Assembly: GCA_031406795.1 (NCBI GenBank)
Contig: JANOHV010000262.1
Location: forward strand, 723 to 64,722
DNA length: 64,000 nucleotides
Direction: 5' to 3'
From: Candidatus Rokuibacteriota bacterium
GTDB lineage: Bacteria > JAUVQV01 > DATDCY01
Part shown: positions 3,721 to 60,556 of the stretch, piece by piece
How the letters are laid out: each line of letters begins with the position of its first letter
Position numbering within the stretch: position 1 is the stretch's first letter
Position numbers and translations under genes: made by a program
Notes under the pieces: generated by a model
Seen by the model: only the letters and a program-made list of their open reading frames with translations
Told to the model about the DNA's origin: nothing
Database searches by the model: none

Positions 3721-3881
3721 CAGAAAAGCGTGTAAATGAACGGCGCCACGACCTGGTGATCCGCAAGCAGGACGAGCACTGCCAGCAAGAGCAGCACCAG
3801 AACGACGGGCATCAGGAAATAGTTCTTCCGCAGCGCCAGGAAACGAAGGAAATCGACGAACGCGAGAAGAGTCTTCAGCAT
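3721..3881 (-). CDS. small hydrophobic membrane protein (53 aa)
   Basis: Not in the ORF track (<60 aa). Reverse translation gives MLKTLLAFVDFLRFLALRKNYFLMPVVLVLLLLAVLVLLADHQVVAPFIYTLF. It sits in the 230-nt gap between two same-strand genes. The only listed ORF in this gap is an antisense low-complexity one. Confidence 0.4.
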
Positions 3882-3919
3882 CCCGAGTGCCTGGGTCGTC
3901 GGCGATTGCGATGCATCGG

Positions 3920-6487
3920 CTATCGGTTTGGCGGCCCGACCGCCTCCGTGTCGCGATAGTGCATGGCGGGAACTTGCTGCAGGAAGGACTCCCGCGACAT
4001 TTGCGGCGCCTCCAGGCGCCTGATGAGGTCGATGTACCGATCGTAGATTCTCCGGGCTTCTTCCTTGCTGAACACCTCTTCCAGTTCGCCGAGCTTCTCG
4101 GCCTGCAACAGGAGCGAATAGTCATGGAGCACCGGATGGATCTGGCGTATGATCTCCATCCCTTGGCGCGCGAACGGCTCCAGGGTGGGGTCTTCCCTCA
4201 TTGCCCGCTCCATGGTTTCGAGATACTGCCGGTACATCCCGTCGAGTTTGTCGTATTGGCGCATGATAAGATACTGGTTGTACAATGATTCGACGGCCCT
4301 TGCCTCGACCGCCGGTTGGAAGTCATACGGTGCCTCGGATTCCAGTTTCTCGACCGGAAGTGCCGGGCTGTCGGGGAGCATCGACCATGCGGTCATGACC
4401 CTGAGCATTTCAACGGCGATCGCTTCCTGGCTGGCGATCGTCGGATGCACATAATCGAGCAGCACGTCCAGGCCGAGGATTCCGTCGGGCGTCAATCGCT
4501 CCAGAGCGCCGATGCTGTCGACAAGGGGGACCCGGTGATCGACTGCAATCTCCCGCAACACCGCCTGCATGCGGGGCAGCGCCCTGAAAGGATAAGCATC
4601 CTTCTCCAGAGCCGAGGAAAAGGCGAGTTTCGCCTCTGCATTCCTGCCCGATCGAAGCAGCGCCACGCCGAGATGGTACCACGTCTCAGCGTGTTCCTCG
4701 TCGGCCGCAACTGCTTGCTCGAGAGAGACGACCGCCGCGGGGAATGCGCCCTGGGCGATCTGGACAACCCCCCTCTTGAATTCGCGCTGCCACACCTTCA
4801 GCGCCGCGGCAGAGAGCCCCGCTTGGTGCCGGGAAGCGTTGGGAATCCAGTCCCTGATATTGACCGGGACATTCAGCAGCAGCACCGGAATGCTCCGGTC
4901 CTGGCAGATTTTCACCATGCGGTCGACATTGTAACGGTATTTGGCCAGGACTTGGCGGTATTGTTCCTGGTCGCGCCGATAGGCGGATGACTTGCCGAAG
5001 GCGAACGCGATGCGATTGGATGCCTGATCTCTCGCCGTATACGTATCCACTTCGTAAGACGGCTTGTTCCGGTGGAAGTGGTCGTAGACGCTCCATCCCA
5101 GGCGGGCGACTGCCAAGCCATTCAGCACTCCCGGCAGGGGCCGCCTTTGAAAGAGAAATGTCTCGAGAAACTCATTGTTGCCGGTGTAAATAAGAACCAG
5201 ATCCGGCTGATAACCGATTACTTCGTCGAACACCGCCTTGACCCTGTGGCTGCCAAAGGTGCCTCCGGCAACGTTGAGTACCTCCACCTGCCGTCCGGGG
5301 AGCAACCGCGCGAGTTTGCGCTCGAGGAATCGTGCCAGATTGTACTTGCCCACGGCAAAAGGCCAGCCACCGGCGGCCGAACCGCCAAGCAGGAAGACCC
5401 GGTAGCCGTTCGGTGGCTTTTCTTTCAAGAAGGTCTGATTCCCGAGAATCAGCCGATGATGACTGGTGCGTCGGTAGACATGACGCCCGTTTTCCAGCAC
5501 CGATTCAAATACCGGCGCGGGATAACGCATTTCAAGATAGGGATTGCTCTCCTGCCCGAGGTAGTTGCGAACCTGCTCGATGACCCGGGCTCCCGCCTCC
5601 AGGAGCAGGAACGAAACAACGACGGCCGTCGCCGGAAAGATCCATCGCCGGTTCCCCGAGAGGCTATCCCGGGCAGCGGCGCCGCGATCCTCGCTCGGCA
5701 CCAAGGCGAACCTCAAACGCAGCCCGAGGGTCCCGAGAAACAAGAACAATCCCAGCCAGAAAAAGGGTCTGCCGGGCGTCTTCTTGACCCGCATAGCGGC
5801 CCGCAGGGTGCCATCGGCCGCATCCTCCCAACTCGCCAGCGAAATTCTGACTCCCCGCCAACCGAAGCTCTCACCCCGTTCCAGCCAGCTTTCGAGCACG
5901 ATATCCGCTCCCTCGAGCACGGCCAGCTGCACCCTGACCCGAGGCTGATCCAAAGCGAAACGGTGCGAGATGAGAGTCACCGTGTTTCCTTCGGCTTCGC
6001 TTCGCCGCACCTGTTGACCAGCCAGAGAGAAGATGAGTTCACGAGTCCCTGCGCCGGTGCGTGAGAGCAGGAAGATCTCACCCGTCTCGTCGTCGAACTT
6101 GTTCAGCTGCAGGTAGAAGTCCTGGCCGGGAACCTGTGTTTCCGCATGTCCCTCGGTGAGTCCGATCTCATGGGGTTCGCCCGCTGCGTCGGTCCTGTCG
6201 ATCCGGACCCGGATCGACAATGGGCCATAATCTGCGACCAAACGTTGCAGGAGCAGGCTGAAAGACCGAACGGACCTTTCTTCGATTTTCGGCGCGTCGG
6301 CGATGGCGGCGGACTCTCCAACGGAGAGCTTCCTGATGTCGTCAAACCCCATGCCGGCATTGACCAACCAACCGCAGAGCAGCGCCAGAATCGCTGCCGT
6401 GAGGCCGTACCTCGTCACGCGGTATGATTGGGGTGCCCCCAATCCGGCGTGCTGCTGTTGAGGGCTGGCCGTGACTTGATTCCTCAT
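3920..6487 (-). CDS. large membrane-anchored protein with SGNH/GDSL-like hydrolase fold region and TPR-like segment
   Basis: ORF track 855 aa. Two N-terminal hydrophobic segments. LLGGSAAGGWPF..VLIYTGNNEF resembles the SGNH hydrolase blocks I/III. AETWYHLGVALLRSGRNAEAKLAFSSALEKD is TPR-like. Confidence 0.6.
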   Translation of the reverse strand: MRNQVTASPQQQHAGLGAPQSYRVTRYGLTAAILALLCGWLVNAGMGFDDIRKLSVGESAAIADAPKIEERSVRSFSLLLQRLVADYGPLSIRVRIDRTDAAGEPHEIGLTEGHAETQVPGQDFYLQLNKFDDETGEIFLLSRTGAGTRELIFSLAGQQVRRSEAEGNTVTLISHRFALDQPRVRVQLAVLEGADIVLESWLERGESFGWRGVRISLASWEDAADGTLRAAMRVKKTPGRPFFWLGLFLFLGTLGLRLRFALVPSEDRGAAARDSLSGNRRWIFPATAVVVSFLLLEAGARVIEQVRNYLGQESNPYLEMRYPAPVFESVLENGRHVYRRTSHHRLILGNQTFLKEKPPNGYRVFLLGGSAAGGWPFAVGKYNLARFLERKLARLLPGRQVEVLNVAGGTFGSHRVKAVFDEVIGYQPDLVLIYTGNNEFLETFLFQRRPLPGVLNGLAVARLGWSVYDHFHRNKPSYEVDTYTARDQASNRIAFAFGKSSAYRRDQEQYRQVLAKYRYNVDRMVKICQDRSIPVLLLNVPVNIRDWIPNASRHQAGLSAAALKVWQREFKRGVVQIAQGAFPAAVVSLEQAVAADEEHAETWYHLGVALLRSGRNAEAKLAFSSALEKDAYPFRALPRMQAVLREIAVDHRVPLVDSIGALERLTPDGILGLDVLLDYVHPTIASQEAIAVEMLRVMTAWSMLPDSPALPVEKLESEAPYDFQPAVEARAVESLYNQYLIMRQYDKLDGMYRQYLETMERAMREDPTLEPFARQGMEIIRQIHPVLHDYSLLLQAEKLGELEEVFSKEEARRIYDRYIDLIRRLEAPQMSRESFLQQVPAMHYRDTEAVGPPNR

Positions 6488-6782: not shown

Positions 6783-8483
6783 ATGAATTCGTCGGCGATG
6801 CGGGGGGGCGGTGCACTGATCCGGCTCGCGGTGCTCGCACTGGCCGCCGCGGCGCTCTACGCGGTCTTCGGCGAGGCGCGATCCTTCGGTTTCCTTGATT
6901 ACGATGACGGCGAGTACGTCTTCCGGAATCGGCACCTGATCGAGGGGGGAGCCGTCGAGCGCCTGCGCTGGGCGTTCACCTCCTTCCATGCGGCGAACTG
7001 GCACCCGCTCACCTGGATCTCATTCATCGCGGACCGTGCCCTCTTCGGGCTCGACCCGGAGTGGTATCACCTGGAGAACCTTCTGCTTCACGGTCTTAAC
7101 ACCCTCCTGGCGCTCTGGTTGCTGGTGCGCCTGACCGGGTCTCCGGGGAAGAGTGCACTGGTTGCGGCCCTCTTCGCGCTGCACCCGCTCCGCGTCGAAT
7201 CGGTCGCATGGATCACCGAGCGCAAAGGCCTGCTGATGGCGTTCTTCGCCATGCTGACGTTCCACGCTCACGTTTCTTACACCCGGCGGCCGGCACCCGC
7301 CCGTCTCCTGGCCGTTGCGCTCCTCTTTGCCGGCGCCCTGTTTTCCAAGCCCCAGGCGGTCGCCCTGCCCCTGGTCCTGCTGGTCCTCGACTGGTGGCCG
7401 CTCGGCAGGCTCGGACGGCGTACGGCAGCTGTGGCAGGCAGGGGCGTCGTGCGCGAGAAGGTGCCTCTGCTGCTGCTGGCTGCCGCCGTTACGGCGTTCA
7501 CGGTCGCTGCCCAGCGGCGGGCCGGGGCGATGGCGTCGCTCGAAGGGCTGGCGATCGGGAAAAGGCTGGCGGGCGCCGTGATCGGCCCGGCCGCGTATCT
7601 GGCGAAAACCCTCTGGCCATTCGGGCTCACACCCGAGTACCCGCTCCTCGACCCGCCCTTCTTGCAGGTTGCCGGCGCCGCCTTGACGCTCGCCGGCCTC
7701 ACCGTCGCGGCGGTGCGGGTGCGCGAAACGCAGCCGTGGGTCGCCGCGGGCTGGCTGGTGTTCCTCTTGTTTCTGGCCCCGGTCTCGAACCTTTTCCAGG
7801 CCGGAGGCCAGGCCATGGCGGACCGGTACACCTATCTGCCCCACATCGCGCTATTCTTCGCAGCGGTGTGGTCAGGAGGGCGCGCGCTGCGGAATCATCC
7901 ATGCGCGCGTAACGCAGCCGCCGCCGCCTGTGTCTTGCTCGCGCTCGCCTCAGGTTGGCTTGCGAGCCGGCAGGTGGGATTCTGGCGCGATGAGCTGACG
8001 CTCTTTTCCCACGCTGTCGCGGTGACGCGGGGAAACTGGAAAATGCACTACAACCTGGGCAACACCTTCGAGCGTCTGGGTCGGGACACGGATGCCGAAG
8101 CGCAGTACGGCCTCGCCCTGTCAGTCCGGCCGGATTATGCCGAAGCGCTCAACAATCTGGGAGCCATTCGCGCCCGACACGGCGATGCCGAGACCGCTGC
8201 CGACCTGTTCGCCCGCGCAGTGAGGGTCCGGCCCGAATACGGCCCCGGCTGGTTCAACCTGGGATTTCAGAGCGAACAGCAGGGAGATCTCGCCGCCGCG
8301 CTCCGACAGTACGGCCGGGCGGCAGCCCTGCAGCCCGACGCCGCGGAACCGCGTGTCAGGCTGGGACGGGTCCTCGCGAGGCTGGGGCGCCGGGACGAGG
8401 CAGCCGCTTCCTGTCGAGCGGCGCTGCGGCTCGACCCGTCCTCGGCCGGAGCCGCCGCCTGCCTGCGGGAGGTCTCACGGTGA
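6783..8483 (+). CDS. TPR-containing GT-C membrane glycosyltransferase, DUF1736/PMT-like
   Basis: ORF track 6507-8483. The first ~90 aa are low-complexity, so the start was moved to ATG 6783 (MNSSAMRGG), which is preceded by GGAGG 8 nt upstream. Motifs WHPLTWISF, HPLRVESVAWITERKGLL, LVLLVLDWWPLGRL, ADRYTYLPHIA and C-terminal TPRs (HYNLGNTFERLGRDTDAEAQYGLAL). Confidence 0.8.
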   Translation: MNSSAMRGGGALIRLAVLALAAAALYAVFGEARSFGFLDYDDGEYVFRNRHLIEGGAVERLRWAFTSFHAANWHPLTWISFIADRALFGLDPEWYHLENLLLHGLNTLLALWLLVRLTGSPGKSALVAALFALHPLRVESVAWITERKGLLMAFFAMLTFHAHVSYTRRPAPARLLAVALLFAGALFSKPQAVALPLVLLVLDWWPLGRLGRRTAAVAGRGVVREKVPLLLLAAAVTAFTVAAQRRAGAMASLEGLAIGKRLAGAVIGPAAYLAKTLWPFGLTPEYPLLDPPFLQVAGAALTLAGLTVAAVRVRETQPWVAAGWLVFLLFLAPVSNLFQAGGQAMADRYTYLPHIALFFAAVWSGGRALRNHPCARNAAAAACVLLALASGWLASRQVGFWRDELTLFSHAVAVTRGNWKMHYNLGNTFERLGRDTDAEAQYGLALSVRPDYAEALNNLGAIRARHGDAETAADLFARAVRVRPEYGPGWFNLGFQSEQQGDLAAALRQYGRAAALQPDAAEPRVRLGRVLARLGRRDEAAASCRAALRLDPSSAGAAACLREVSR

Positions 8484-11712: not shown

Positions 11713-13254
11713 ATGAGCCCCCGGCGCTGGCTTCTGCTGCGCCGTGTTTCGCAGCTGGTCTTTCTCGTCACGTTCGTCTTCCTGCTGCTGCGCACCGAAT
11801 ATCGCGGTTTCGACGTCATCCGCTACCCGGTCAACACCTTCTTCCAGCTCGACCCGCTGCTCGGTCTGGCTACCTTGATCGGACTGCGCGAGGCGATCGG
11901 GCACTTCTGGCCCGCGCTGCTGACCGTCGCGGTGACGCTTGCGCTCGGACGGGTCTTCTGCGGCTGGTTCTGCCCGCTGGGGGCGACGCTGGATCTGACG
12001 CGTCGCCTGCTCCGGACGCTCCCCGCGCCGCGCCGCCCGCTGCGCTGGGAGGGCCGCCGCGTGAAGTACTACCTGCTGGCCGCCGTGCTGGCCGCCGCGG
12101 TCTTCAACTGGCAAGCGGCGTGGCTGCTCGACCCCTTCAGCCTGCTCACGCGCGGACTCTCGGTCGGGGTCGTCCCGGCGGTCAACGGCGCAGTGAGCGC
12201 GGTCTTCAACAGCGTCTACTTCGGCCTGCCGGCGTTGCGCCCGCTCTCCGAGCCGGTGTTCGACCTGCTCAAGGCGCACGTGCTGACCTACGAGCAGCAG
12301 TACTTCCGCTGGGCCTGGCTCTCGCTCGGGGTGCTGCTCGCGGTGCTCGCGCTGGAGCGCTGGCAGCCGCGCTTCTGGTGCCGCAACCTCTGCCCGCTCG
12401 GCGGGCTGCTCTCGCTCTGCGCGCGAGGCCGGACGCTCTCCAGGAAGGTGAGCGGCGCCTGCACAGACTGCGGCACCTGCTGGGGCACCTGCCCGGTCGG
12501 CCTGATCGAGGATGGCACGCATCGCCGTTCACAGGCCGAGTGCACCGCCTGCATGCGCTGCCCGCCGGTTTGTCCCGAGGAAGCGATCGGCTTTGCGTGG
12601 GGGTATCGCCGCGCCGAGGCGCCGCTGGACATCGATCGCCGCCGCCTGATCGGCTCGGTCGTCGCGGGGATGGCGCTCGTGCCGTTGACGCGAATGCACC
12701 CGGCGCGCGCGACGGTGCCGCCCGAGCGGCTGCGGCCGCCGGGCGCGCGCCCGGAAGCGGACTTTCTCAACCGCTGTCTGCGCTGCGGGGCCTGCATGAA
12801 GGTCTGCATGCGCAATGCGATCCACCCGGCGCTGCACGAAGCGGGGTGGGAGGGCGTGTTCACCCCGATCATGGATTTCGAGATCGGCTACTGCGAGTAC
12901 AACTGCACGCTCTGCGGCCAGGTCTGCCCGTCGGAGGCGATCCGACGCCTGCCGCTGCAGCAGAAGCAGAAGTACGTCATCGGCACCGCGGTCTTCGACA
13001 AGGGCCGCTGTCTGCCGTGGGCCAATCACATCAACTGCCTGGTCTGCGAGGAGCACTGCCCGACCGGCGAGAAGGCGATCGTCTTCGAAGAGCAGGACGC
13101 CGTGGGGCGCGACGGCAAGACGATCCGCGTCAAACTCCCGATCGTGGTCCCCGAGCGCTGTATCGGCTGCGGGATCTGTCAGCAGAAATGCCCGGTCGAG
13201 GGGCGCGCTGCGGTCTTCGTCACTCCCCAGGGCGAGTCGCGGGCGGCCGGGTGA
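11713..13254 (+). CDS. membrane-bound polyferredoxin (NapH/MauN-like 4Fe-4S binding protein)
   Basis: ORF track 513 aa. N-terminal TM helices with a CGWFCPLG motif, then multiple CxxCxxCxxxCP ferredoxin motifs (CTDCGTCWGTCP, CTACMRCPPVCP, CLRCGACMKVCM, CTLCGQVCP, CLVCEEHCP, CIGCGICQQKCP). Confidence 0.85.
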   Translation: MSPRRWLLLRRVSQLVFLVTFVFLLLRTEYRGFDVIRYPVNTFFQLDPLLGLATLIGLREAIGHFWPALLTVAVTLALGRVFCGWFCPLGATLDLTRRLLRTLPAPRRPLRWEGRRVKYYLLAAVLAAAVFNWQAAWLLDPFSLLTRGLSVGVVPAVNGAVSAVFNSVYFGLPALRPLSEPVFDLLKAHVLTYEQQYFRWAWLSLGVLLAVLALERWQPRFWCRNLCPLGGLLSLCARGRTLSRKVSGACTDCGTCWGTCPVGLIEDGTHRRSQAECTACMRCPPVCPEEAIGFAWGYRRAEAPLDIDRRRLIGSVVAGMALVPLTRMHPARATVPPERLRPPGARPEADFLNRCLRCGACMKVCMRNAIHPALHEAGWEGVFTPIMDFEIGYCEYNCTLCGQVCPSEAIRRLPLQQKQKYVIGTAVFDKGRCLPWANHINCLVCEEHCPTGEKAIVFEEQDAVGRDGKTIRVKLPIVVPERCIGCGICQQKCPVEGRAAVFVTPQGESRAAG

Positions 13255-13277
13255 AGCGCCGTGAGGCAGGTTTCGGC

Positions 13278-14333
13278 ATGACACCGGGCGAAGGGATCCC
13301 CGGAACGCGGCTGCTGCTCGCGTGCGGCGTTCTGCTCGTCGGATTCGCCGCGTCGTGCTCCCGGATCGACGCGGATGCCGTCTATGCGGTGCGGCTCGCC
13401 GCGCCGCCGACCGACGCCGCGTGGGACCTGGCGATGCCGCGCCGCGTGAAGGCCGGCGGCGGCAGCGTGCACGGGCGGACCCCGGTGCTCGCCGGCCTCG
13501 AGCTGGACACCGACGCGGTGCACGGCGCGTCGGCCTCCTGCCACCACGGCCCGCCGGTCACCCACCCGACGCCGGTGCAGCTCCGGGCGTACCACACGGC
13601 TGCCGATCTCTATCTCGACGTGCGCTGGGAGGATGCCACGGCAGACCTCGTTCCCCGCTCCTGGAAGCGCACCGACGGCGGCTGGGAGATCGCGCCCGAC
13701 GACGAAGACGGCGTCGCGATCCTCTGGAGCAGCGGCGCCGGACGCTTCGGCTGCCAGGCGGCCTGCCACCAGAGCGATTTCGCCGTCCGCGGCGGCTCGC
13801 TGGTGGACGTGCGCTCGATGTTCCTCGCGGAGGAGGGGGTCCGGGAGGAGGCCTGGGTCTGGAAGCCGTCTCTCGGCGGCCGCCAGCTGCTGATTGACCG
13901 CACGGGTTTCGTGACCCCCGGCGGGGCGCCCTACAGCGCGGTGAATTCGCGGTTGGCTCACGACGCCGCGCTCGGGCCCGAGGCCAGGCGCGCCGGCATG
14001 TTCGGGAAGCAGGACGCACCGGTGACCGACGGGGAGGGGCGACCCGTCACGGCTGCCACGCGCACTGCCCCCGCTAGCCGCTGGGCCCCTGCGGGCGAGG
14101 AAAACCGCGTCACCGCCCGTGCCGAACGGTGGCGCCGGGGCTGGCGTGTGGTGTTCACCCGGCCTCTCGCCCCCGGGGACGGACTCGCGGCCTTCCGGCC
14201 CGGGGAGCGCCACCGGTTCGGCGTCGCGATCTTCGACGGCACCTCGGTGAACCACCACGTCGTCCGCGACACCCAGATCTTCGAGATCGTGGCGCCGCCT
14301 GCTCCGGGCGTGGCGTCGGAGGAGGCGGAGTGA
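13278..14333 (+). CDS. putative heme-binding lipoprotein (CxxCH motif; ethylbenzene-dehydrogenase-gamma/DOMON-like domain suspected)
   Basis: Embedded in track ORF 12120-14333; the real start is ATG 13278 (MTPGEGIPGTRLLLACGVLLVGFAASC). Lipobox-like AASC, and a CQAACH heme c motif. The rest is a hydrophilic periplasmic domain. Confidence 0.55.
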   Translation: MTPGEGIPGTRLLLACGVLLVGFAASCSRIDADAVYAVRLAAPPTDAAWDLAMPRRVKAGGGSVHGRTPVLAGLELDTDAVHGASASCHHGPPVTHPTPVQLRAYHTAADLYLDVRWEDATADLVPRSWKRTDGGWEIAPDDEDGVAILWSSGAGRFGCQAACHQSDFAVRGGSLVDVRSMFLAEEGVREEAWVWKPSLGGRQLLIDRTGFVTPGGAPYSAVNSRLAHDAALGPEARRAGMFGKQDAPVTDGEGRPVTAATRTAPASRWAPAGEENRVTARAERWRRGWRVVFTRPLAPGDGLAAFRPGERHRFGVAIFDGTSVNHHVVRDTQIFEIVAPPAPGVASEEAE

Positions 14334-26135: not shown

Positions 26136-27088
26136 AGATCCTCTGTCCGGTCGACTCGGCCGCCGAGGCCGAGACGCTCGCGGGGCTCGGCGCCGACGAA
26201 CTTTACGGCGGCTACCTGCCGGCTCAGTGGACGGAGCGGTTCGCCCTTGCGGCACCGCCGAACCGGCGAACCTTCGCCGAGGCTCAGATCAGCGACGCCG
26301 GGGAGCTGCGTGCGGTCGTCGCGGCCGCGCACGCCGGCGGGGCGGAGTTCTTTCTGACGGTCAACAGCCCGTTCTACGCGAGCGGGCAATATCCGGCGCT
26401 GCTGGCGCTGGCCGAGGAGGCTCTGGCCGCCGGGACCGACGCCTTCATCGCCGCCGACCCCGGATTCATCCTCGCGGCCCGGGCTCGCTGGCCGGGGGTG
26501 CGCATTCACCTCTCGACGCTCGCCGACGCTGCCAACAGCGGCGCGGCGGCGTTCTGGGGCCGGCTCGGCGTGGAGCGCATCACCCTGCCGCGGCATCTGA
26601 CGCTGGCCGCGACCGCCGCGCTTCTTGCCGCGAGCCCCGGCCGGCGTTTCGACGCTTTTGTGCTGTATGGGCAGTGCCCGAACGACGAGGGGCAGTGCAC
26701 CTTCTCGCACGATCACCCTGGCCGCGTCTGGCCTTGCGTCCAGCCGTACACGGCGACCCCGCTGCCGGACACCCCCCGGGCGCGCCGGGCGGCGGCCGCG
26801 CACGCCGGCTGGGCGGGCCTCTCCCGCGCCGACGCCTGCGGGCTCTGCGCGCTCTGGGATCTGGAGCGCCTCGGCGTCGAGGCCGCGAAGATCGTCGGCC
26901 GTGGGACGCCGACCGGGCGCAAGGCCTGGGCGGTGACCACGGTCAAGGAGTTGCTCGGAATTATCGCCGCCGGCTGCGGCCGCGAGGAGTTCCGCGCCGA
27001 GGCGCGGCGGCGCTCGCACGGTCGTTTCGCGCACCGGTGCGATCCGCGGCTCTGCTACGTACCGGAACTGATCCCGGTCGAGGGGTGA
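26132..27088 (+). CDS. peptidase U32 family protein (UbiU/RlhA/PrtC-like)
   Basis: In-frame part of track ORF 25838-27088. GTG 26132 overlaps the upstream TGA. N-terminal KILCPVDSAAEAETLAGLGADELYGG matches the U32 N-terminal block. Cys cluster QCPNDEGQCTFS, plus CGLCALWD. Confidence 0.7.
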   Translation: MKILCPVDSAAEAETLAGLGADELYGGYLPAQWTERFALAAPPNRRTFAEAQISDAGELRAVVAAAHAGGAEFFLTVNSPFYASGQYPALLALAEEALAAGTDAFIAADPGFILAARARWPGVRIHLSTLADAANSGAAAFWGRLGVERITLPRHLTLAATAALLAASPGRRFDAFVLYGQCPNDEGQCTFSHDHPGRVWPCVQPYTATPLPDTPRARRAAAAHAGWAGLSRADACGLCALWDLERLGVEAAKIVGRGTPTGRKAWAVTTVKELLGIIAAGCGREEFRAEARRRSHGRFAHRCDPRLCYVPELIPVEG

Positions 27089-27876
27089 GCGTGGAGCGCG
27101 CCGTCTTCGTGGCCGATCTGGACAGGCTCCCCCCCGAGGGCGAGCCGTATGACCGTCTCTACCTCGGCAGCGAGTTCTGCGCCTGGCGCCTCCCGGAGGA
27201 ACGCGAGCTCCAGGAGGCGCGCGGTGTCGCCGCCCGCAGGGGGGTCGGCTTTTCGCTGGTGACACCCTTCCTCGACGAGCCCGGCCTGGCGCGCACGCTA
27301 GCACTGGTTCGCGCGCTCCCGGAGGACCCGGCGACCGAAGTCGTCGCCAACGACCTCGGCCTGATCGAGGTGCTGCGCGGTGCCGGGTGGGGAGGGACGG
27401 TGGTCGCCGGCCGCCTGCTCACGCGCCAGCGCCGGGGCCCGGGGTTCCAATCGTTCGGCGACGTCACCGCCGCGGCAGCAGCCGCGCTGCGCGGTTCCGC
27501 CCTCGACTCGCCGGCCTTCGTCGAGCTGCTCGGTTCGTACGGCGTCAAGCGCTTCGAGCTCGACGACCTCGTCCAGGGCGCTTCGATCCCCGTTCTGCCC
27601 GCGGGAGTCCACCTCTCGCTCTACCGGCCGTACCTGCTCGTCACCGCGACCCGCAACTGCCCGTGGATCTTCGACGGCCGCACCTGGGACCGCAGTCGCG
27701 GCTGCGCCCGCCCCTGCCGCGGTCAGGAGCTTCACCTGGTTCCGCAGCGACGGGACCCCGAAGCCCAGCACGGTCTCCACCTGGGCGGCTGCGCGCAGTT
27801 TCTCGAGCATCGGAGCGATGCCCCGCCCCCGGCGGGCGTCGACAGGATCGTCTGGCAACCGGAGATACCGGCGTGA
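27085..27876 (+). CDS. second U32-family-like protein (UbiV-like partner)
   Basis: In-frame part of track ORF 26227-27876. GTG 27085 overlaps the upstream TGA. DRLYLGSEFCAWRLP is U32-like. Cys cluster RNCPWIFDGRTWDRSRGCARPCRG. Confidence 0.6.
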   Translation: MSVERAVFVADLDRLPPEGEPYDRLYLGSEFCAWRLPEERELQEARGVAARRGVGFSLVTPFLDEPGLARTLALVRALPEDPATEVVANDLGLIEVLRGAGWGGTVVAGRLLTRQRRGPGFQSFGDVTAAAAAALRGSALDSPAFVELLGSYGVKRFELDDLVQGASIPVLPAGVHLSLYRPYLLVTATRNCPWIFDGRTWDRSRGCARPCRGQELHLVPQRRDPEAQHGLHLGGCAQFLEHRSDAPPPAGVDRIVWQPEIPA

Positions 27877-28811
27877 TGAATCTCGACTGGAGTCGTTTCT
27901 GGCTCGTCCTGCTTGATGAGGCCACCCGGATGTGGTGGGTCTTCGGCCTCGGCGTGCTCGTGGCCGCGCTGATCAAGACTTTCAAGTGGGACAAGAAGAT
28001 CCGCAAGCGGCTCAAGGGGAGCCGGCACGGGGCGATTGCGCTGGCGACCGGCGTCGGCCTCGTCTCGCCGCTCTGCTCCTGCGGCATCGTGCCGCTCGTG
28101 ATCTCGCTGATCTTCGGCGGCGTCCCGCTCGCGCCGGTCTTCGCGCTGCTGATCACCTCGCCGCTGATGAGCATCGACGCGTTCGTGATCACGCTCGGCG
28201 GCCTCGGCCCGACCCTGGCCTGGGGCAAGCTCGCGAGCGCCGTCTTCGCCGGCCTCGCGGGCGGCTACGCGGTGCTCGGGATGCAGAGGCTCGGGTGGAT
28301 CCGGGAGGAGGGCCTTCTCGGCCGCGAGCGCCCGAACATCCGCGAGAAGTGCCTCGACGACGCCGCGCCCGACGACCCCCGCCGCGGCCTCGAGGTCCCG
28401 GAGCGGCGGCTCTGGTACTTCGGCCTGATGGTCAAGGACATGACCTGGATCATCGGCCGCTTTCTCGTGCCCGCGCTCGTGCTGGAGGCAGCGATCGTCG
28501 CGTTCGTCCCGCTCGGCTGGATGAAGGCGCTGGCCGGTGCGCCCGAGCCGGTCGCGGTGATCGTCGGCGCGTTCGCCGGCATCCCGGTGCCGCTGCCCCA
28601 GATCGCCGCGGTGCCGCTGCTGCGCGGGCTGCGCGAGCTGGGCCTGGGGGACGCCGGGGCGATGGCGCTGCTGGTCTCCGGCCCGGTGACCAGCATCCCG
28701 GCGATCGCGCTGCTCGCGGCGGTCTTCCAGCGCCCGGTGCTCGCGCTGTACGTCACCACCGGACTGACCACCGCCCTTCTCGCAGGTTTCACGATCCTCG
28801 CGCTCGGTTAG
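27876..28811 (+). CDS. permease, ArsP/DUF318 (YraQ-like) family
   Basis: In-frame part of track ORF 27387-28811. ATG 27876 overlaps the upstream TGA (TGATG). About 8 TM helices, and an SPLCSCGIVP motif like the ArsP TPxCSC motif. Confidence 0.75.
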   Translation: MNLDWSRFWLVLLDEATRMWWVFGLGVLVAALIKTFKWDKKIRKRLKGSRHGAIALATGVGLVSPLCSCGIVPLVISLIFGGVPLAPVFALLITSPLMSIDAFVITLGGLGPTLAWGKLASAVFAGLAGGYAVLGMQRLGWIREEGLLGRERPNIREKCLDDAAPDDPRRGLEVPERRLWYFGLMVKDMTWIIGRFLVPALVLEAAIVAFVPLGWMKALAGAPEPVAVIVGAFAGIPVPLPQIAAVPLLRGLRELGLGDAGAMALLVSGPVTSIPAIALLAAVFQRPVLALYVTTGLTTALLAGFTILALG

Positions 28812-28921
28812 CACTCCAGCAGATGATTCGGTCCTTTTTCGTCATTCCCGACTACAACCTCGGGAACGACGGGAAGGTCTGCTGTAGTGTTCGCCTGGCT
28901 TCAGGCTCGAAGGACCGTCCT

Positions 28922-29014
28922 GGCGGAGGGGTGGCGCGGAGGGGAGGTCTCCGTCGCGCGGAGCGAAGGGAGCACGATGGAGTCCCGCAGCGACAGGACC
29001 CCGCAGCCTGCACG
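28922..29014 (+). repeat. conserved ~93-nt intergenic element, copy A (about 85% identical to 60448-60539)
   Basis: Direct sequence comparison: GGCGGAGGGGTGGCGCGGAGG ... GGTCTCCGTC ... AGGGAGCACG ... TCCGCAGCG ... GCCTGCACG is shared. The CTCCG/CGGAG stem is conserved, with a different loop in each copy. Confidence 0.6.
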
Positions 29015-29030
29015 GGAACGGTCGAACGGC

Positions 29031-29805
29031 TCAGCCGACGTCCGTGACCTCGAGCTTCCTGCCTCCCGGCGAGAACAGCCCACCTCCGCCGATGCCCGCC
29101 CGGTGCAACACGAACTTCGCGGTCGTCGCGAGCACCCCCAGGCCGTACTGCACGCTGCGGCGGAAGTTGATCGAGGAGGCCTCGGGGAAGTACTTGGTCG
29201 GGCAGCTGACCTCGCCGATCGTGAAGCCGAAGGCGACGGCCTGCACGAGCAGCTCGTTGTCGAAGACGAAGTCGTCCGAGTTCTCGCCGAGCGGGAGCGT
29301 CTCGAGCACGCTGCGGCGGTAGGCGCGAAAGCCGGTGTGGTACTCCGACAGCTTCACCCCCAGCGCGAGGTTCTCGACGAGGGTCAGGAACCGGTTCGCG
29401 AGGTACTTGTAGCGCGGCATCCCGCCGAGCAACGCCCCCCCCGCCGAGGATGCGCGAGCCGAGCACGATGTCGTAGTGGCCGGAGGCGACCATCGAGGCC
29501 ATCGCGGTGACCAGGCGCGGCGAGTACTGGTAGTCGGGGTGGAGCATCACGACGATGTCCGCCCCCGCGGCCAGCGCCGCGGCGTAGCAGGTCTTCTGGT
29601 TGCCGCCGTAGCCGCGATTGGCCGGGTGGATGATCGTGCGCGGCCCCAGCTCGCGGGCGACCGCCGCGGTTGCGTCCGGCGAGGCGTCGTCGACGAGGAT
29701 CGTCTCGTCCACGTAGTCGTGCGGCAATTCGGCGTGCGTCCGCCGCAGGGTGCGTTCGGCGTTGTACGCCGGCATTACCACGAGGAGCCGTTGTCCGTTG
29801 ATCAT
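29031..29805 (-). pseudogene. GT2 family glycosyltransferase (DPM1/GtrB-like polyprenyl-phosphate sugar synthase) interrupted by a frameshift in a C8 homopolymer
   Basis: N-terminal part is in track ORF 28852-29805 ([38 protein letters not shown]). C-terminal part is in track ORF 29031-29432 in another frame ([24 protein letters not shown]). Removing one C from the run at 29445-29452 restores [16 protein letters not shown] strong GAGGAGGG RBS precedes ATG 29805. Confidence 0.75.
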
Positions 29806-56086: not shown

Positions 56087-57166
56087 TTGACGACGCATAT
56101 CCCCGCCAATCCCGCCATCGCAGTTGCCGCGCTCTTTGCCGTCGCTCTCGCCGGCTGCGCCGTGAACCGGCCGCCGGTTGCGAGCACCGTCCCGACCGTT
56201 GGCCTGGTGCAGGTCCGGCTCATGCACCGGGAGCACGCGGTCCCGGGAATCAGGGTGACCGCGGTGCGAAACCTCGGGGTCGCCCTGCTGGAGGAGCGGA
56301 TCGTCGCTGACGCCACCGCGGACGGCCCTGCGCGACTCGGCCTCGCGCCGGGGAGCTGGTATCTCTCGGCGTCGACCGGCGAGCCGGCGCTCTTCGGCTG
56401 GTACGGATCAAATCCCGTCATGGTCCGCGCCGGGGAGACGGTCGAGGTCACTATCCCGGCGGTCCCCGCTCCAGGCGCCATCACGGTGACCTCCGTCTCG
56501 CCGGGAGAGGAAGCGGTCGCGGGAGAGGTCCTTGGCGACACCGGAGCCATCCCCGGAGCCGGGGTGGCATTCTATCTGGACGCGTCGACCCAGTTTCGGG
56601 GGCCGGGTTACATCGAGGCCCGGGCGGACGAGCGCGGTATCTTCGAGACGCGCCTCTCCCCGGGGCGCTACTGGATCTTTGTCCGCCGCCGCTCGAGACC
56701 GCAGGTTTTCGGTCCGCTGGAGGCGGGAGACGACTTCGGCTCCTACCCCGGCAACCCACTCGAGATCCGGGCGGGGGAGCGGGTGGCGATCCGCATCCCG
56801 ACCGTGCGCGTCCTGAAGAAGAGCGGCTGGAGCGCCCCCTCGGCGTTGCGCACCCGCGTCAGCGGCACGATTCGCGACACGGCCGGGCGCCCGCTCCCCG
56901 GGTTCCGCGCCTTTCTCCACGCGAAAACTACGATGCTCGGCAAGCCGGAGTTCGTTTCGGAGCCGAGCGGGGCGGACGGCTCCTACCTGGTCTGGGTCGA
57001 CCGCGAAGGCGTCTATTACCTGGGCGCGCGAGCGGAGATTGGGCGTGCACGCGAGGAGCGCGAGCTGATCGGCCTCTACGCGGGCTCCCCCGACCACGCG
57101 ATCGAGGTGCGGCTGGACGCGGGCGCGCTCCCGGCGATGGACATTGTCGTGGGCGGCGCGCCATGA
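56087..57166 (+). CDS. lipoprotein with three carboxypeptidase-regulatory-like repeats
   Basis: ORF track 359 aa. TTG start after AAGGGGGAG. Lipobox LAGC. Repeats end in SWYLSASTGEP, RYWIFVRRRSRP and VYYLGARAEIGRA. Confidence 0.75.
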   Translation: MTTHIPANPAIAVAALFAVALAGCAVNRPPVASTVPTVGLVQVRLMHREHAVPGIRVTAVRNLGVALLEERIVADATADGPARLGLAPGSWYLSASTGEPALFGWYGSNPVMVRAGETVEVTIPAVPAPGAITVTSVSPGEEAVAGEVLGDTGAIPGAGVAFYLDASTQFRGPGYIEARADERGIFETRLSPGRYWIFVRRRSRPQVFGPLEAGDDFGSYPGNPLEIRAGERVAIRIPTVRVLKKSGWSAPSALRTRVSGTIRDTAGRPLPGFRAFLHAKTTMLGKPEFVSEPSGADGSYLVWVDREGVYYLGARAEIGRAREERELIGLYAGSPDHAIEVRLDAGALPAMDIVVGGAP

Positions 57167-58005
57167 GGTATTTATGGGTGTGCTTTGTCGCGGCCTGCCT
57201 GGCTCCCCTGACGGGGTGTGCTACGAACCAACCGCGTAACGGCTCTGCCCCGGGGGCGATTTGGACTTGGTCGGGCGAGCGCCGGATCGCCAACTACGTC
57301 GAGATCCCCGCCGGCGTCACGCTGCTGATCGCGCCGGGCACTACCCTGCGCTTCGCTTTCATCGACCGCGACGGTGACGGCATCGGAGACGCGGGCCTGC
57401 ACGTGCTCGGTCGCATCGAGGCCGTCGGGACGCCGACCGCACCGATTGTCTTCACCTCGGCGGAGGCCGACCCCCAGCCCGGCGACTGGCAGGGATTGGT
57501 CTTCGACGCATCGAAAGACAATCTCTTCCTGGAGAGCCGTTTCGAGTACGCGCAGCACGCGCTGCACGCGCACTTCTCCTCGGCGCGCCTGGAGCGCTGC
57601 CGGCTCGAACGCAACATCGAGGGAACCCGCCTCGGCAATTCAAGCTTCACGCTCGAGCGCTGCCTCGTGCGCGGCAACATCAGCAAGGGGCTCAATTTCT
57701 TCGGCTGCTCGAACATCATCCGCCGCAACTTGATCACCGGCAACACGGACGGGGTGTTCCTCTTCGAGACCGACACCAACTCGGTCGTCGAGGCCAACAA
57801 CATCGTCGGCAACCTGCGCTTCGACGTGCGTCTCGGCGATTTCTATCGCGGGGGCAAGACCATCGGCGAGAACTGGTTCGGGACCACCGATGTCGCCGCG
57901 ATCCGGGAGCGGGTTTTCGACGGGAAAAACGACCCGGGTCTCGGCCGGCTCGATTTCATCCCCGCGCCGCTGCCCTTCGACACCGGATGGGAGGGCGAAC
58001 CGTGA
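57163..58005 (+). CDS. right-handed parallel beta-helix repeat lipoprotein (NosD-like), paralog of 20357-21208
   Basis: ORF track 280 aa. Lipoprotein signal LTGC. TLRFAFIDRDGDGIGDAGLHV..IVFTSAE is colinear with TVRFAWSDEDGNGIGDGELAV..ITFTSAR in the paralog. Confidence 0.8.
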   Translation: MRYLWVCFVAACLAPLTGCATNQPRNGSAPGAIWTWSGERRIANYVEIPAGVTLLIAPGTTLRFAFIDRDGDGIGDAGLHVLGRIEAVGTPTAPIVFTSAEADPQPGDWQGLVFDASKDNLFLESRFEYAQHALHAHFSSARLERCRLERNIEGTRLGNSSFTLERCLVRGNISKGLNFFGCSNIIRRNLITGNTDGVFLFETDTNSVVEANNIVGNLRFDVRLGDFYRGGKTIGENWFGTTDVAAIRERVFDGKNDPGLGRLDFIPAPLPFDTGWEGEP

Positions 58006-60416
58006 GCACCCCGGCGCTCGCGGGCTGGAACCAGCGACTCGGCGTCGGGCTGCTGATCAGCTCGCTCTGCCTGCTGGCTCTGGAACTGACGCTCTCGCGC
58101 ATCTTCTCGGTGCTGATGTGGTACCACTTCGTCTCGCTCATCGTCTCGCTGGCGCTCTTCGGCATCACGGTCAGCGGGCTGGCGGTCTTTCTCGTCCCTG
58201 AGCGCTTCCCCCGCGAGGCGACGGCCACCTGGATGGGGCGAGCCTCGCTGGCGCTGACCCTCGCGCTGCTCGCGCTCTGGACCTTCTTCCTGCTGCTCGC
58301 CCGCTCGCCGCAGCTGGCCTACCGCATTCTCGCCCCCTTTCACCAACCGCAGTACGAGCCCTTCGGCGCCGACAAGGTCACGCTCCTGGACGGCGGCCAG
58401 ATTCTGCCGCTGGCGGTGCTCTACCTGGTCTCCGCGCTGCCCTTCATTTTCGGCGGGTTCGTCGCGACGCTGGCCCTGACGCGGTATCAGGAACGAGTCG
58501 CGTCGGTGTACGCCTGGGACCTGGTCGGCGCCGGCCTCGGCTGCGTCGCGGCCTTCGCCCTGCTGACCTGGCTCGACCCCTTCGCCACGCTGGCGGCGCT
58601 GGCCGTTTTCGCGGCGCTTGCGGCCTGGGTCTTCTTCCGGGAGAGCGGCGGCCGCGGCGGCGCGCTCGGCGCGCTGGCGCTCGGGGCGCTCTCGCTCGCT
58701 CTCGTCGCGGCGACCGCGAGCGGCGGGATCGTGGAGTTGAAGTTCGTGCGCGGCCGCTATCAGCCGGACCTGCTGCTGACGCGCTGGAACTCCTACTCCC
58801 GGGTCGCGGTCTGGCCGCTGCGCACCGGCCAGGGCGAGGCCTCGTGGGGGATGAGCCGCGGCTACCGCGGACCGATCCCGGAGCAGTACGGTCTGGTGGT
58901 CGACGACACCGGCTACACCACGATCGCGCGCTACCGCCCCGGCGACGACCTGGGCTGGGCCCGCGCGAACCTGCTGTCGCTCCCCTACGCGGTTCGCGAG
59001 GACGCGCGGGCGCTGATCATCGGACCGGGTGGCGGCAAGGACATCCTGATCGCGCTGGCGAGCGGGGCAGCCGCGGTGCGTGCGGTCGAACTCAACCCGC
59101 TGGTCGTGCGCGCCGTCCAGGACGACTTCGGGGACTTTTCCGGCCGCCCGTACACGCTGCCGGGCGTCGAGAAGGTCGTGGACGAGGGGCGCACCTTCCT
59201 CGCGCACGACACCTCGCTCTACGACGTCATCCAGGCCACGGTCGTCTACGGCCGGCTCGCCCCGGCGGCCGGGGCTTTCACGTTCACCGAAGACCACCTC
59301 TACACGACCGAGGCGTTCCAGACCTACCTCGACCGGCTGGCGCCCGGGGGGATGCTGGCCTTCTCGCGCTTCATCTACGAGAAGCGCATCCTGCGGCTGG
59401 TTGCAACGGCGCGGGCGGCGCTCGAGGCGCGCGGTATCGCGGCGGCTCCCGGGTGCATCTTCATCGCGGCCGAGCGCGGCCTGGCCTCGGTGCTCATCAA
59501 GAACGCGCCGTTCACGGCGACGGAGCTTGCGGAGCTGCAGGGCCGCTGTCGCGAGCTGGGCTTCCAGGTGCTCTATGCTCCCGGCGGAGCGGGCGACAGC
59601 GCCATTGCCGACCTGCTGCGCGCGCCGGATCCGGCGGCGTACCTGGCCGCGCTGCCCTTCGACGCCACGCCGGTCGGCGACGACCGGCCGTTCTTCTACT
59701 ACCTGATGCGGCCAGGGGATTTCCTGCGCAGCGGCGCCGCCCGAGCGCCCGATTTCGAGGACCGGGGTCTGCTGCTGATGCGCAATCTGCTCGGCACGGT
59801 GTTTGGCCTGGTCATGCTGTGTATCGCGCTGCCGCTGGCGCGCTACGGTCGCCTGCGAGAGATCCGCTGGGGGCGCGCCTGGGCTGCGGTCGGGTATTTC
59901 GCGGCGATCGGACTGGGGTTCATCGTCGTCGAGATCGGCCTGCTCAAGCGCTTTCTGCTGCTGCTCGGCAAGCCGGCGTACACGCTGGCCGTGACGCTGG
60001 CGATCTTTCTCGCGGCCGGCGCGTTGGGCAGCGCCCGGGCCCGGTTGATGGCGGGAAACGCGCGCCTCGTTCGCCGCAGCTGCGCGCGCCTGACCATCGT
60101 CCTGCTCCTCACGGCCGTTCTGTTGCCGCCGCTGCTCGAGACGCTGCTTGCCGCGCCGCTCTGGGCCCGGCTTGCTGCGACCGTGGCGGTCATGGCGCCG
60201 CTGGGGTACCTCATGGGCCAGCCGTTGCCGGCCGGCCTCTCGCTGCTGCGCCAGCAGCGTCTCGTTCCCTGGGTCTGGAGCATCAACGGGGCGCTCTCGG
60301 TGCTCGGCTCGGTCGGGGCGCTCGTCCTCGCGGTCAACTTCGGCTACACGACGACGATGCTCGTCGGCCCGGCCTGCTACCTCGTCGCCGGCGCCCTCGC
60401 CGAACTGGTCGAATGA
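58002..60416 (+). CDS. spermidine-synthase-like (aminopropyltransferase/methyltransferase fold) domain fused between two polytopic membrane domains
   Basis: In-frame part of track ORF 57987-60416. GTG 58002 overlaps the upstream TGA. About 7 N-terminal and 7 C-terminal TM helices flank ALIIGPGGGKDI..VELNPLVV..GGMLAF (spermine/spermidine synthase-like). Confidence 0.65.
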   Translation: MSTPALAGWNQRLGVGLLISSLCLLALELTLSRIFSVLMWYHFVSLIVSLALFGITVSGLAVFLVPERFPREATATWMGRASLALTLALLALWTFFLLLARSPQLAYRILAPFHQPQYEPFGADKVTLLDGGQILPLAVLYLVSALPFIFGGFVATLALTRYQERVASVYAWDLVGAGLGCVAAFALLTWLDPFATLAALAVFAALAAWVFFRESGGRGGALGALALGALSLALVAATASGGIVELKFVRGRYQPDLLLTRWNSYSRVAVWPLRTGQGEASWGMSRGYRGPIPEQYGLVVDDTGYTTIARYRPGDDLGWARANLLSLPYAVREDARALIIGPGGGKDILIALASGAAAVRAVELNPLVVRAVQDDFGDFSGRPYTLPGVEKVVDEGRTFLAHDTSLYDVIQATVVYGRLAPAAGAFTFTEDHLYTTEAFQTYLDRLAPGGMLAFSRFIYEKRILRLVATARAALEARGIAAAPGCIFIAAERGLASVLIKNAPFTATELAELQGRCRELGFQVLYAPGGAGDSAIADLLRAPDPAAYLAALPFDATPVGDDRPFFYYLMRPGDFLRSGAARAPDFEDRGLLLMRNLLGTVFGLVMLCIALPLARYGRLREIRWGRAWAAVGYFAAIGLGFIVVEIGLLKRFLLLLGKPAYTLAVTLAIFLAAGALGSARARLMAGNARLVRRSCARLTIVLLLTAVLLPPLLETLLAAPLWARLAATVAVMAPLGYLMGQPLPAGLSLLRQQRLVPWVWSINGALSVLGSVGALVLAVNFGYTTTMLVGPACYLVAGALAELVE

Positions 60417-60447
60417 GCCCGGTGATGGAATTCGATTGCGAGAGTCA

Positions 60448-60539
60448 GGCGGAGGGGTGGCGCGGAGGTGTGGTCTCCGTCGGCGGACCGGAGGGAGCAC
60501 GCTGGAGGTCCGCAGCGTCAGGATCCCGGAGCCTGCACG
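60448..60539 (+). repeat. conserved ~93-nt intergenic element, copy B (5' of CarbopepD lipoprotein gene)
   Basis: About 85% identical to 28922-29014. Ends 17 nt before ATG 60557. Confidence 0.6.
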
Positions 60540-60556
60540 AGCCCGGGGGGACAAAG

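Follow-up and report, generated by a model that had tools for sequence, protein, structure and literature searches.

A probable non-autonomous interspersed repeat with a conserved hairpin fold in Methylomirabilota (Rokubacteria-type) genomes

Two similar intergenic elements, here called copies A and B, in a 64,000-nucleotide stretch of Candidatus Rokuibacteriota DNA (hereafter the window) probably belong to a family of non-coding, non-autonomous interspersed repeats that is present in many copies in Methylomirabilota (Rokubacteria-type) genomes. The element is of the REP/REPIN, ERIC and MITE kind, with a behavior closest to that of REPINs, and the family appears to be previously undescribed, with no match in Rfam, among plasmid or viral sequences, or in the literature. 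Literature searches returned no paper that contains an arm sequence of the element or that ties Rokubacteria or Methylomirabilis to such repeats, and found nothing on the non-coding repertoire of Methylomirabilota/Rokubacteria, which are uncultured bacteria of soil and sediment.

A defined repeat with its covariance model aids annotation, in that fewer spurious ORFs are called over the G-rich arms; it also flags assembly and binning problems, marks synteny breakpoints, and can serve as a lineage marker. The family further offers a REPIN-like population for study beyond Proteobacteria, as well as an example of how such repeats can become part of proteins in frame. If the arms bind a dedicated enzyme or RNA-binding protein, hairpin mobility or 3'-end biology would reach a new phylum.

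Two full copies and a remnant in the window

When copy A was used as a BLASTN query against the window, positions 28922–29014 matched 60448–60539 with 88.2% identity over 93 columns (E = 2.7e-28), and in MAFFT alignments the likeness stopped sharply at both edges, beyond which the flanks are unrelated. An earlier note on this DNA, which had described a pair of about 85% identity in otherwise unrelated contexts, is thus borne out in this respect. Its account of a ~93-nt element that is present twice was refined: the similarity itself was confirmed, but the full units delimited by nhmmer are slightly larger, and although there are exactly two full copies, the 3'-half remnant of a third (~27734–27774) had been overlooked. 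A covariance model (R1) built on 97 other family members scored copy A at 94.0 bits (E = 3e-20) and copy B at 92.9 bits (E = 6e-20), with the third-ranked window match reaching only 16.6 bits, and therefore exactly two full copies lie in the window. The corresponding nhmmer scores are 93.7 bits for copy A and 89.0 bits for copy B. The remnant was detected by BLAST (E = 6e-5) and nhmmer (E = 0.009) and is backed by synteny with L023, a retrieved locus from CAZEOK01. The features in question are as follows.

28915–29021, + strand: full unit of copy A, with semi-conserved 5' flank, core and 3' flank (nhmmer, R1)
28922–29008, + strand: hairpin core of copy A, inside the full unit
28922–28952, + strand: 5' arm of copy A, GGCGGAGGGGTGGCGCGGAGGGGAGGTCTCC, G-rich and near-invariant family-wide (family alignments)
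28953–28978, + strand: variable apical stem of copy A, GTCG.../...CGAT (pair table, covariance-model alignment)
28979–29008, + strand: 3' arm of copy A, GGAGTCCCGCAGCGACAGGACCCCGCAGCC (family alignments, covariance-model alignment)
29009–29021, + strand: 3' flank motif of copy A, TGCACGGGAACGG (sequence)
60442–60543, + strand: full unit of copy B (nhmmer, covariance model)
60448–60533, + strand: hairpin core of copy B, within the full unit
60448–60478, 60479–60503 and 60504–60533, + strand: 5' arm, apex and 3' arm of copy B
27734–27774, + strand: 3'-half remnant of a third copy, TCCGCAGCGACGGGACCCCGAAGCCCAGCACGG, in frame within gene 27088–27876 (BLAST, L023 alignment)
27876–28811, + strand: ArsP_1-family permease, co-oriented with and upstream of copy A (Pfam PF03773, E = 4e-34)
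29031–29805, − strand: frameshifted GT2 glycosyltransferase, convergent on copy A (Pfam PF00535, E = 3e-18, N-terminal frame)
57987–60416, + strand: 809-aa ORF without Pfam match, co-oriented with and upstream of copy B
60557–61618, + strand: CarboxypepD_reg/DUF4198 lipoprotein gene with a signal-peptide-like start, directly downstream of copy B (Pfam)

Since the family consensus of the 3' arm is GGAGGTCCGC..., the 3' arm of copy A has two changes. Its apex ends in a C-GAA-G triloop at 28964–28968, where the closing pair that covaries in the family is a G-G mismatch (28963/28969); copy B carries a C-GGA-G triloop at 60489–60493.

The G+C content of the window (69.7%) makes long spurious ORFs common, so substitution phase, Pfam matches and third-position GC were used to assign coding frames. 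Both full copies are located in intergenic DNA, copy A between the convergent ends of the permease and the frameshifted GT2 gene, where the earlier note had placed it; this is supported by the Pfam matches, the stops at 28811 and 29031, and the switch in third-position GC (GC3). The permease, whose start was placed at ATG 27876 from sequence and substitution phase, stops 110 nt ahead of the hairpin, and the GT2 stop at 29031 falls 22 nt past the hairpin core and 9 nt past the full unit. Within the GT2 gene, third-position GC moves to another frame near 29430–29450: the Pfam domain is in the frame from 29805, and the coding signal (GC3 0.95–1.0) carries on in the frame ending at 29031. The split reflects either a pseudogene or misassembly of a G-run. 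Copy B begins 31 nt past the stop of the 809-aa ORF and ends 17 nt ahead of the lipoprotein ATG (60557).

A separate hairpin of 12 bp (CGTCATTCCCGA...TCGGGAACGACG) occupies positions 28829–28871, past the permease stop and ahead of copy A; the TTTTT that precedes it is misplaced for a terminator, whichever strand is read. L023 is syntenic with window positions 26206–28801 at 80–86% identity; this synteny stops exactly at the permease stop (28801/28811 vs L023:2803), just ahead of copy A, which is thus located at a rearrangement boundary between the two sequences.

The remnant is the one window occurrence that is translated. The gene that contains it (27088–27876) encodes a hypothetical protein without Pfam match, lies directly upstream of the permease and overlaps its start (TGATG); its frame was confirmed by third-position substitutions relative to L023, where the orthologue (832–1878) retains a further 87+33 nt of the element without loss of frame. 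Distant homologues of the protein have no insert at this point, and Methylomirabilia-type homologues contain 10–60 extra residues that correspond to translated element (e.g., GEGEGVTRRGGLRRADRREHDGGQQRQDPEAC), with a length that varies by orthologue. The element can thus be tolerated within a protein. Some orthologues translate the 5' arm in another frame, and because the element is read in different frames, its conservation is at the nucleotide level. Given this conservation and the intergenic position of both full copies, the similarity does not stem from a shared coding segment, which the earlier note had named as a possible source.

Distribution and copy number

A 21-mer from the 5' arm (GGCGGAGGGGTGGCGCGGAGG) that is common to both window copies gave 27 exact matches in a scan of GTDB genomes (one genome per GTDB species): 17 in MAG CAZEOK01, 8 in the related Candidatus Rokubacteria MAG CAVOVE01, and 1 each in two other MAGs, whose contigs share 99.6% identity. 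For the 3' arm, an independent 22-mer (GGAGGTCCGCAGCGNCAGGACC) was found in >120 JGI metagenome contigs among the matches listed, and the 5' arm proved to be conserved in copies retrieved by the 3' arm alone. Altogether, nhmmer searches with an HMM of the element located 179 copies or fragments in 708 kb of retrieved loci, 114 of them full length. Only 21% of the copies retrieved via the 3' arm contain the exact 5' 21-mer, and the 8 and 17 exact matches per MAG therefore translate into several tens of copies per genome or more. The earlier note had proposed that copies be counted; these scans revealed many further copies, and their alignment revealed the covariation described below, so that the element is neither confined to its two loci in the window nor devoid of covariation.

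As for the host range, homologues of a window protein carry the label Candidatus Methylomirabilia. Taken with the synteny to L023, this assigns the window to a Rokubacteria/Methylomirabilota-type organism with a genome outside the set scanned. BLAST searches of PLSDB plasmids gave no match to the element and neither arm is present in IMG/VR viral sequences, and a plasmid or phage origin was accordingly rejected. Two loci stand apart: L021 and L026, binned as an Anaerolineaceae MAG and a Chitinivibrionia MAG, respectively, are 99.6% identical over 2.5 kb, each contain a near-consensus copy, and have a G+C content of 59% compared to a median of 68.5% in the remaining loci. This oddity likely reflects mis-binning or a different host lineage.

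A conserved rod-like hairpin

Each unit consists of an imperfect hairpin of ~87 nt and semi-conserved flanks of ~10 nt (~110 nt with flanks), and its core runs from the G-rich 5' arm through a variable apex of ~25 nt to the 3' arm (GGAGGTCCGCAGCGNCAGGACCCCGCAGCC). The 5' flank (GAGCACGTRCTG) is moderately conserved, at 45–75% per position, and the 3' flank (YGCACGGGAACG) is better conserved, at up to 88%. The two arms are near-invariant and contain fixed internal loops, and the apical stem changes fast yet stays paired.

RNAalifold, which the earlier note had suggested as a check, predicts a single rod-like hairpin for the whole unit when run over family copies. Fold statistics were computed for 97 distinct copies in a structure-blind MAFFT alignment, where 94.5% of the cells are paired in the long-hairpin fold, as opposed to 37–45% in partner-slid controls; 10 pairs vary on both sides, and the observed pairing or covariation was matched by none of 500 shuffles. 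Strong covariation is found mostly in the apex: for example, the pair closing the tip (columns 47–54) is GC in 38 copies, CG in 28 and AU in 27, and the tip is always a C-GNA-G triloop with tandem G-A/A-G mismatches beneath. The basal helices give no covariation evidence either way because they are nearly invariant; in keeping with the fold, G and A interchange freely at their unpaired positions. The arms pair at only ~20 of 31 positions, and the unpaired bases of the internal loops are conserved as strongly as the paired ones. G-U pairs outnumber A-C mismatches (39 vs 17) and one U-G wobble is kept in 89 of the 97 copies, indicating that the G-rich strand as written is the structurally constrained strand. 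Folded as RNA, the consensus reaches −39.6 kcal/mol (z = −3.0), and it beats its own complement under RNA and DNA parameters alike. When the window copies are folded singly, their z-scores of −1.1 and −0.1 are not significant, since shuffles of such G-rich sequence are stable too; information on the fold came from the family alignment alone and not from single-sequence folding.

The CTCCG...CGGAG stem that the earlier note had seen preserved in both copies did not withstand this analysis, with 69.6% of its cells paired over the 97 copies, no covariation above shuffles, and the two outer pairs unpaired in 54 and 74 copies. Within the element-spanning hairpin, CTCC pairs with a downstream GGAG (28979–28982 in copy A). 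The absence of a recognizable riboswitch, which had also been remarked, agrees with the Rfam searches: the whole window gave no match in Rfam 15 at gathering thresholds, and permissive scans, run on both copies and on the long form described below, returned noise only (E above 1).

Copy turnover and variant forms

Comparison of contigs with coding flanks of 80–96% identity revealed that copies come and go at orthologous spacers. Two spacers of the window are empty:

57166–57248, no strand: empty orthologous spacer in the window, where L082 and L098 each have the element
13220–13432, no strand: empty orthologous spacer in the window, where L087 has two tandem copies

Similarly, two genes that abut in L024 are separated in L079 by a ~155-nt insertion that includes the element; one spacer contains 0, 1 or 2 copies across L062, L038 and L071; at one spacer, the copies of L062 and L071 are oppositely oriented; and one copy is intact in L065 and a fragment in L090. 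Orthologous spacers thus differ in copy number, orientation and subfamily, from which it follows that copies turn over. The exchange of subfamilies is best seen in three orthologues with coding flanks of 92–96% identity, which have identical arms and three different, internally compensated apices at the same site; each of these apex types is also seen at other loci, and the most frequent apex occurs at 10 loci that are unrelated. Over nine orthologous pairs, the arms are 95–98% and the apex 77% identical (for a sample biased toward well-preserved copies, since an intact 21–22-mer was required), compared to ~55% for the adjacent intergenic flanks and 82–94% for the neighboring coding sequence. 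We read this pattern of arms and apex as turnover, by re-copying or overwriting from active subfamilies, and not as in-place conservation; overwriting of this kind in conserved extragenic spaces has been described for REPINs (bioRxiv 10.1101/2024.10.14.618302). An arm constancy above that of neighboring coding sequence would also fit selection for a host function.

No target-site duplication was detected: there is no diagonal mutual information between 5' and 3' flanks above the null, and the longest direct repeat in the flanks averages 5.23 compared to a null of 5.18, duplications of 2–4 bp being below the reach of this analysis. Empty and filled pairs come from genomes of ~85% identity, which are too diverged for base-exact junctions. 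Extra inverted repeats in the flanks were not found.

The element occurs in solo, tandem, head-to-head and internally deleted forms and in a long form of ~215 nt. Internal deletions fall between GGAGG(TC) direct repeats (e.g., L008, L011, L023, L034, L092 and L107), and 5' stubs of 26–33 nt lie beside gene ends in L003, L006, L007, L009 and L013. Directly adjacent tandem copies are present in L041 and L087, and head-to-head pairs in L071, L101, L044 and L066. In L071 (1–11174), six copies or fragments are spread over 11 kb in nearly every spacer of a same-strand gene run, with mixed orientations, and its head-to-head pair is separated by 1 nt (7639–7747 on the − strand, 7749–7848 on the + strand).

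Position relative to genes

Copies are nearly all intergenic; approximately 11 were flagged in ORF calls, and one is confirmed as coding. The flanking genes are of the housekeeping type, including adk, clpB, cmk, ddl, trpE, the H+-pyrophosphatase (H+-PPase) gene and hycI, and no transposase was found among the flanking genes examined. Genes enclosed by inverted copies were considered as transposase candidates and rejected, as they encode adk, a holin-like protein and HycI.

Orientation was counted with a simple GC3-based gene caller. Where the upstream gene ends within 150 nt, 48 copies are co-oriented with it and 18 are not (73%, p = 3e-4), and between co-directional genes 23 copies are sense and 9 antisense (p = 0.02). 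Co-oriented copies are also nearer to the consensus, with a median of 88 vs 75 bits (p = 0.005). The usual position is 4–100 nt past a stop codon, and divergent spacers are least used.

Several known functions were tried on this arrangement and rejected. An intrinsic terminator would suit the GC-rich hairpin but lacks the T-run in the flank: no U-tract is conserved after the hairpin in either orientation (cf. the 3' flank consensus), and neither window copy has a promoter-like or terminator-like site. The 5' flank resembles a sigma-54 site by eye (GAGCACG-N5-GGGC), but AG mostly stands in place of the critical GG, and conservation of the flank is just 45–75%. Finally, a CsrA sponge was considered for the 7 GGA motifs of the + strand, but these lie outside hairpin loops, and copy number and decay pattern do not fit.

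Comparison with known repeat families

The closest parallels are found in the REPIN/RAYT systems of Pseudomonas and Enterobacteriaceae, which share with the present element an intergenic hairpin of ~70–110 nt in which the arms are conserved and the apex less so, a copy number in the tens to hundreds, with singlets, tandem arrays and inverted clusters, the lack of a target-site duplication, and an apparently lineage-restricted distribution. Variants are likewise replaced in conserved extragenic spaces (bioRxiv 10.1101/2024.10.14.618302). The hallmark of a REP, however, is a 5' GT(A/G)G with the palindrome straight after it (PMC3686654), whereas the element has no terminal GT(A/G)G, starts with GGCGGAGGGG, and contains GTGG only internally (28931–28934 in copy A). 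A local hairpin after this internal GTGG (CGGAG/CTCCG) is contradicted by a G-to-A change that is frequent and uncompensated at one position of this hairpin. Moreover, the arms are not recognizably two inverted copies of one ~25-nt REP, no RAYT gene is linked to the element in the 708 kb of loci, and the host phylum differs. Because the REP sequence definition fails and no RAYT is linked, we do not file the element as a REPIN.

ERIC/IRU sequences of Enterobacteriaceae are imperfect palindromes of ~100–130 bp that reside in transcribed intergenic regions in either orientation, with shorter forms arising by internal deletion and longer ones by insertion at a fixed internal site. The present element is alike in its imperfect hairpin, its deletions between GGAGG(TC) repeats and its ~115-nt apex insert in 5 loci; unlike ERIC, it resides in Methylomirabilota hosts and has an apex that covaries strongly and defines subfamilies, and no sequence relationship was recognized (the comparison being by description). 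Correia/NEMIS elements of Neisseria and the RUP elements of Streptococcus pneumoniae are MITEs, that is, short, non-coding, hairpin-forming intergenic sequences that are co-transcribed with their neighbors, derive from a parent insertion-sequence family, end in clear terminal inverted repeats and are flanked by target-site duplications. The element is equally short, non-coding, hairpin-forming and intergenic, and presumably co-transcribed as well, but clear terminal inverted repeats, a target-site duplication and a parent insertion sequence were not found in the retrieved loci. Rickettsia palindromic elements (RPE), in turn, are inserted in frame in protein genes and translated. One copy of the present element is likewise in frame and translated, with orthologue inserts of different length, but this coding copy is an exception in a family whose copies are nearly all intergenic.

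Mechanism and alternative explanations

Under the interpretation that we consider probable, namely a non-autonomous repeat family, copies would be made and replaced by a trans-acting enzyme that recognizes the folded top strand, through a single-strand, hairpin-recognizing mechanism like that of REPIN/RAYT systems or of IS200-IS605 elements (HUH tyrosine transposases). Four features fit such a mechanism and suit a cut-and-paste DDE transposase less well: no target-site duplication is seen, the G-T wobbles are strand-specific, unpaired bases are conserved, and the triloop is of the GNA type. No Y1 transposase was found in the 708 kb of loci by tblastn with RayT and IS200 TnpA queries, and a global RayT search yielded only Enterobacteriaceae proteins among the best 120 listed, with no RAYT linked to the element.

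Copies just past stop codons are presumed to be co-transcribed and would then form a very stable stem-loop, with a modeled energy of approximately −40 kcal/mol as RNA. Since most copies follow stop codons and are presumably co-transcribed, the main local effect would be a stem-loop in 3' UTRs and intercistronic spacers, which, by analogy with REP and ERIC, may block 3' exonucleases or decouple neighboring genes. Copy A would thereby contribute to the permease 3' UTR and its antisense to the GT2 3' UTR, and copy B would be placed in the spacer right before the ribosome-binding site of the lipoprotein gene.

The main rival, which keeps some support and which we nonetheless regard as rather unlikely, is a functional structured RNA family in which the hairpin is host-selected as RNA and its spread is secondary, either as a module of 3' UTRs or intercistronic spacers to which a specific protein binds, or as a multi-copy small RNA. 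The strand-specific fold would be expected of such a family, as would the significant preference for the sense strand of the upstream gene, the greater intactness of sense copies, the conservation of unpaired internal-loop bases like paired ones, the arms that exceed flanking coding DNA in conservation at orthologous sites, and the extra multi-hairpin domain of the ~215-nt long form, which is found only inside the element. However, ~27% of the gene-near copies are antisense to the upstream gene and the operon-like run of L071 has mixed orientations; the window copies are without promoter-like or terminator-like signals, no U-tract is conserved, and no Rfam family matches. Deletion stubs and decaying copies are common, and the same orthologous spacer has different subfamilies and often no element at all; this subfamily exchange and the empty orthologous spacers argue against a locus-specific function. 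Thus, where the earlier note had left the choice between a structured RNA and a repeat element, a repeat with conserved secondary structure is upheld, and a dedicated regulatory RNA gene is unlikely, given that copies number in the tens to hundreds, lie in both orientations, include deletion derivatives, and come and go at orthologous sites.

Still less probable is a classical MITE, an internally deleted DDE-transposase insertion sequence with the arms as terminal inverted repeats, spread by cut-and-paste with target-site duplication. The outer arms are indeed partly complementary (GGC.../...GCC, GGGGT/ACCCC), and the size of ~100 nt, intergenic sites, and long and short forms suit MITE families, but the flank correlation and direct-repeat length gave no sign of target-site duplication, no copy contains a long internal coding segment or has a transposase beside it, and the strand asymmetry of the wobbles is unexpected for a double-strand substrate. 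A longer element with matching ends was not present in the retrieved 708 kb. It is of negligible probability that the similarity arose by chance, by local segmental duplication or from protein-coding sequence in common: the translated remnant at 27734–27774 does lie in a gene, but the BLAST E of 3e-28, the unrelated flanks, the >140 further copies in other genomes, the intergenic position of both full window copies, and the different frames in which orthologues read the sole element-containing gene all tell against it.

Long forms and companion repeats

The long form of ~215 nt is found at five loci and has ~115 nt in place of part of the apex, with three extra hairpins and conserved blocks in the order CGATCCGATCG...GAACGAG...ATGAGC...GCGAATGGTCGAGTCC; this insert was never seen outside the element in the retrieved DNA.

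L101:3484–3706, + strand: long form
L139:930–1152, + strand: long form
L083:916–1132, − strand: long form
L044:~3850–4052, + strand: long form
L115:957–1080, − strand: long form

A second, unrelated repeat of ~205 nt (CGTGCGCGAGGCGAC...CTCAAACAACGAG...CATCTTCCCTCAG...GCCGCCTCGC) forms a rod-like hairpin with 65 predicted pairs, 18 of which covary; it has no Rfam match, even in permissive mode, and is not present in the window. At at least nine loci, it lies 25–50 nt upstream of the element in the same orientation, giving a composite of ~350 nt. The following loci of this repeat are examples, and others exist.

L010:6436–6639, − strand: 205-nt repeat
L011:2013–2214, − strand: 205-nt repeat
L116:885–1088, + strand: 205-nt repeat
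L002:1389–1594 and 2273–2474, + strand: 205-nt repeats

Taken together, the element, its 205-nt neighbor and the long form could tentatively be seen as the substrate of an as yet undescribed, hairpin-recognizing mobilization system in an uncultured phylum, or as a host-selected RNA or DNA module with a dedicated binding protein, a proposal that we think improbable. As a host module, it may be kept more constant in its arms than the neighboring genes by a use in the cell, such as the marking of RNA 3' ends in a lineage without U-tract terminators.

A third kind of intergenic repeat, consisting of three tandem short GC-rich hairpins (GGGGCGGGGTTGAYCCCCRCCC-like), was observed in L063 (~860–990), where it adjoins the element in one of three orthologous spacers.
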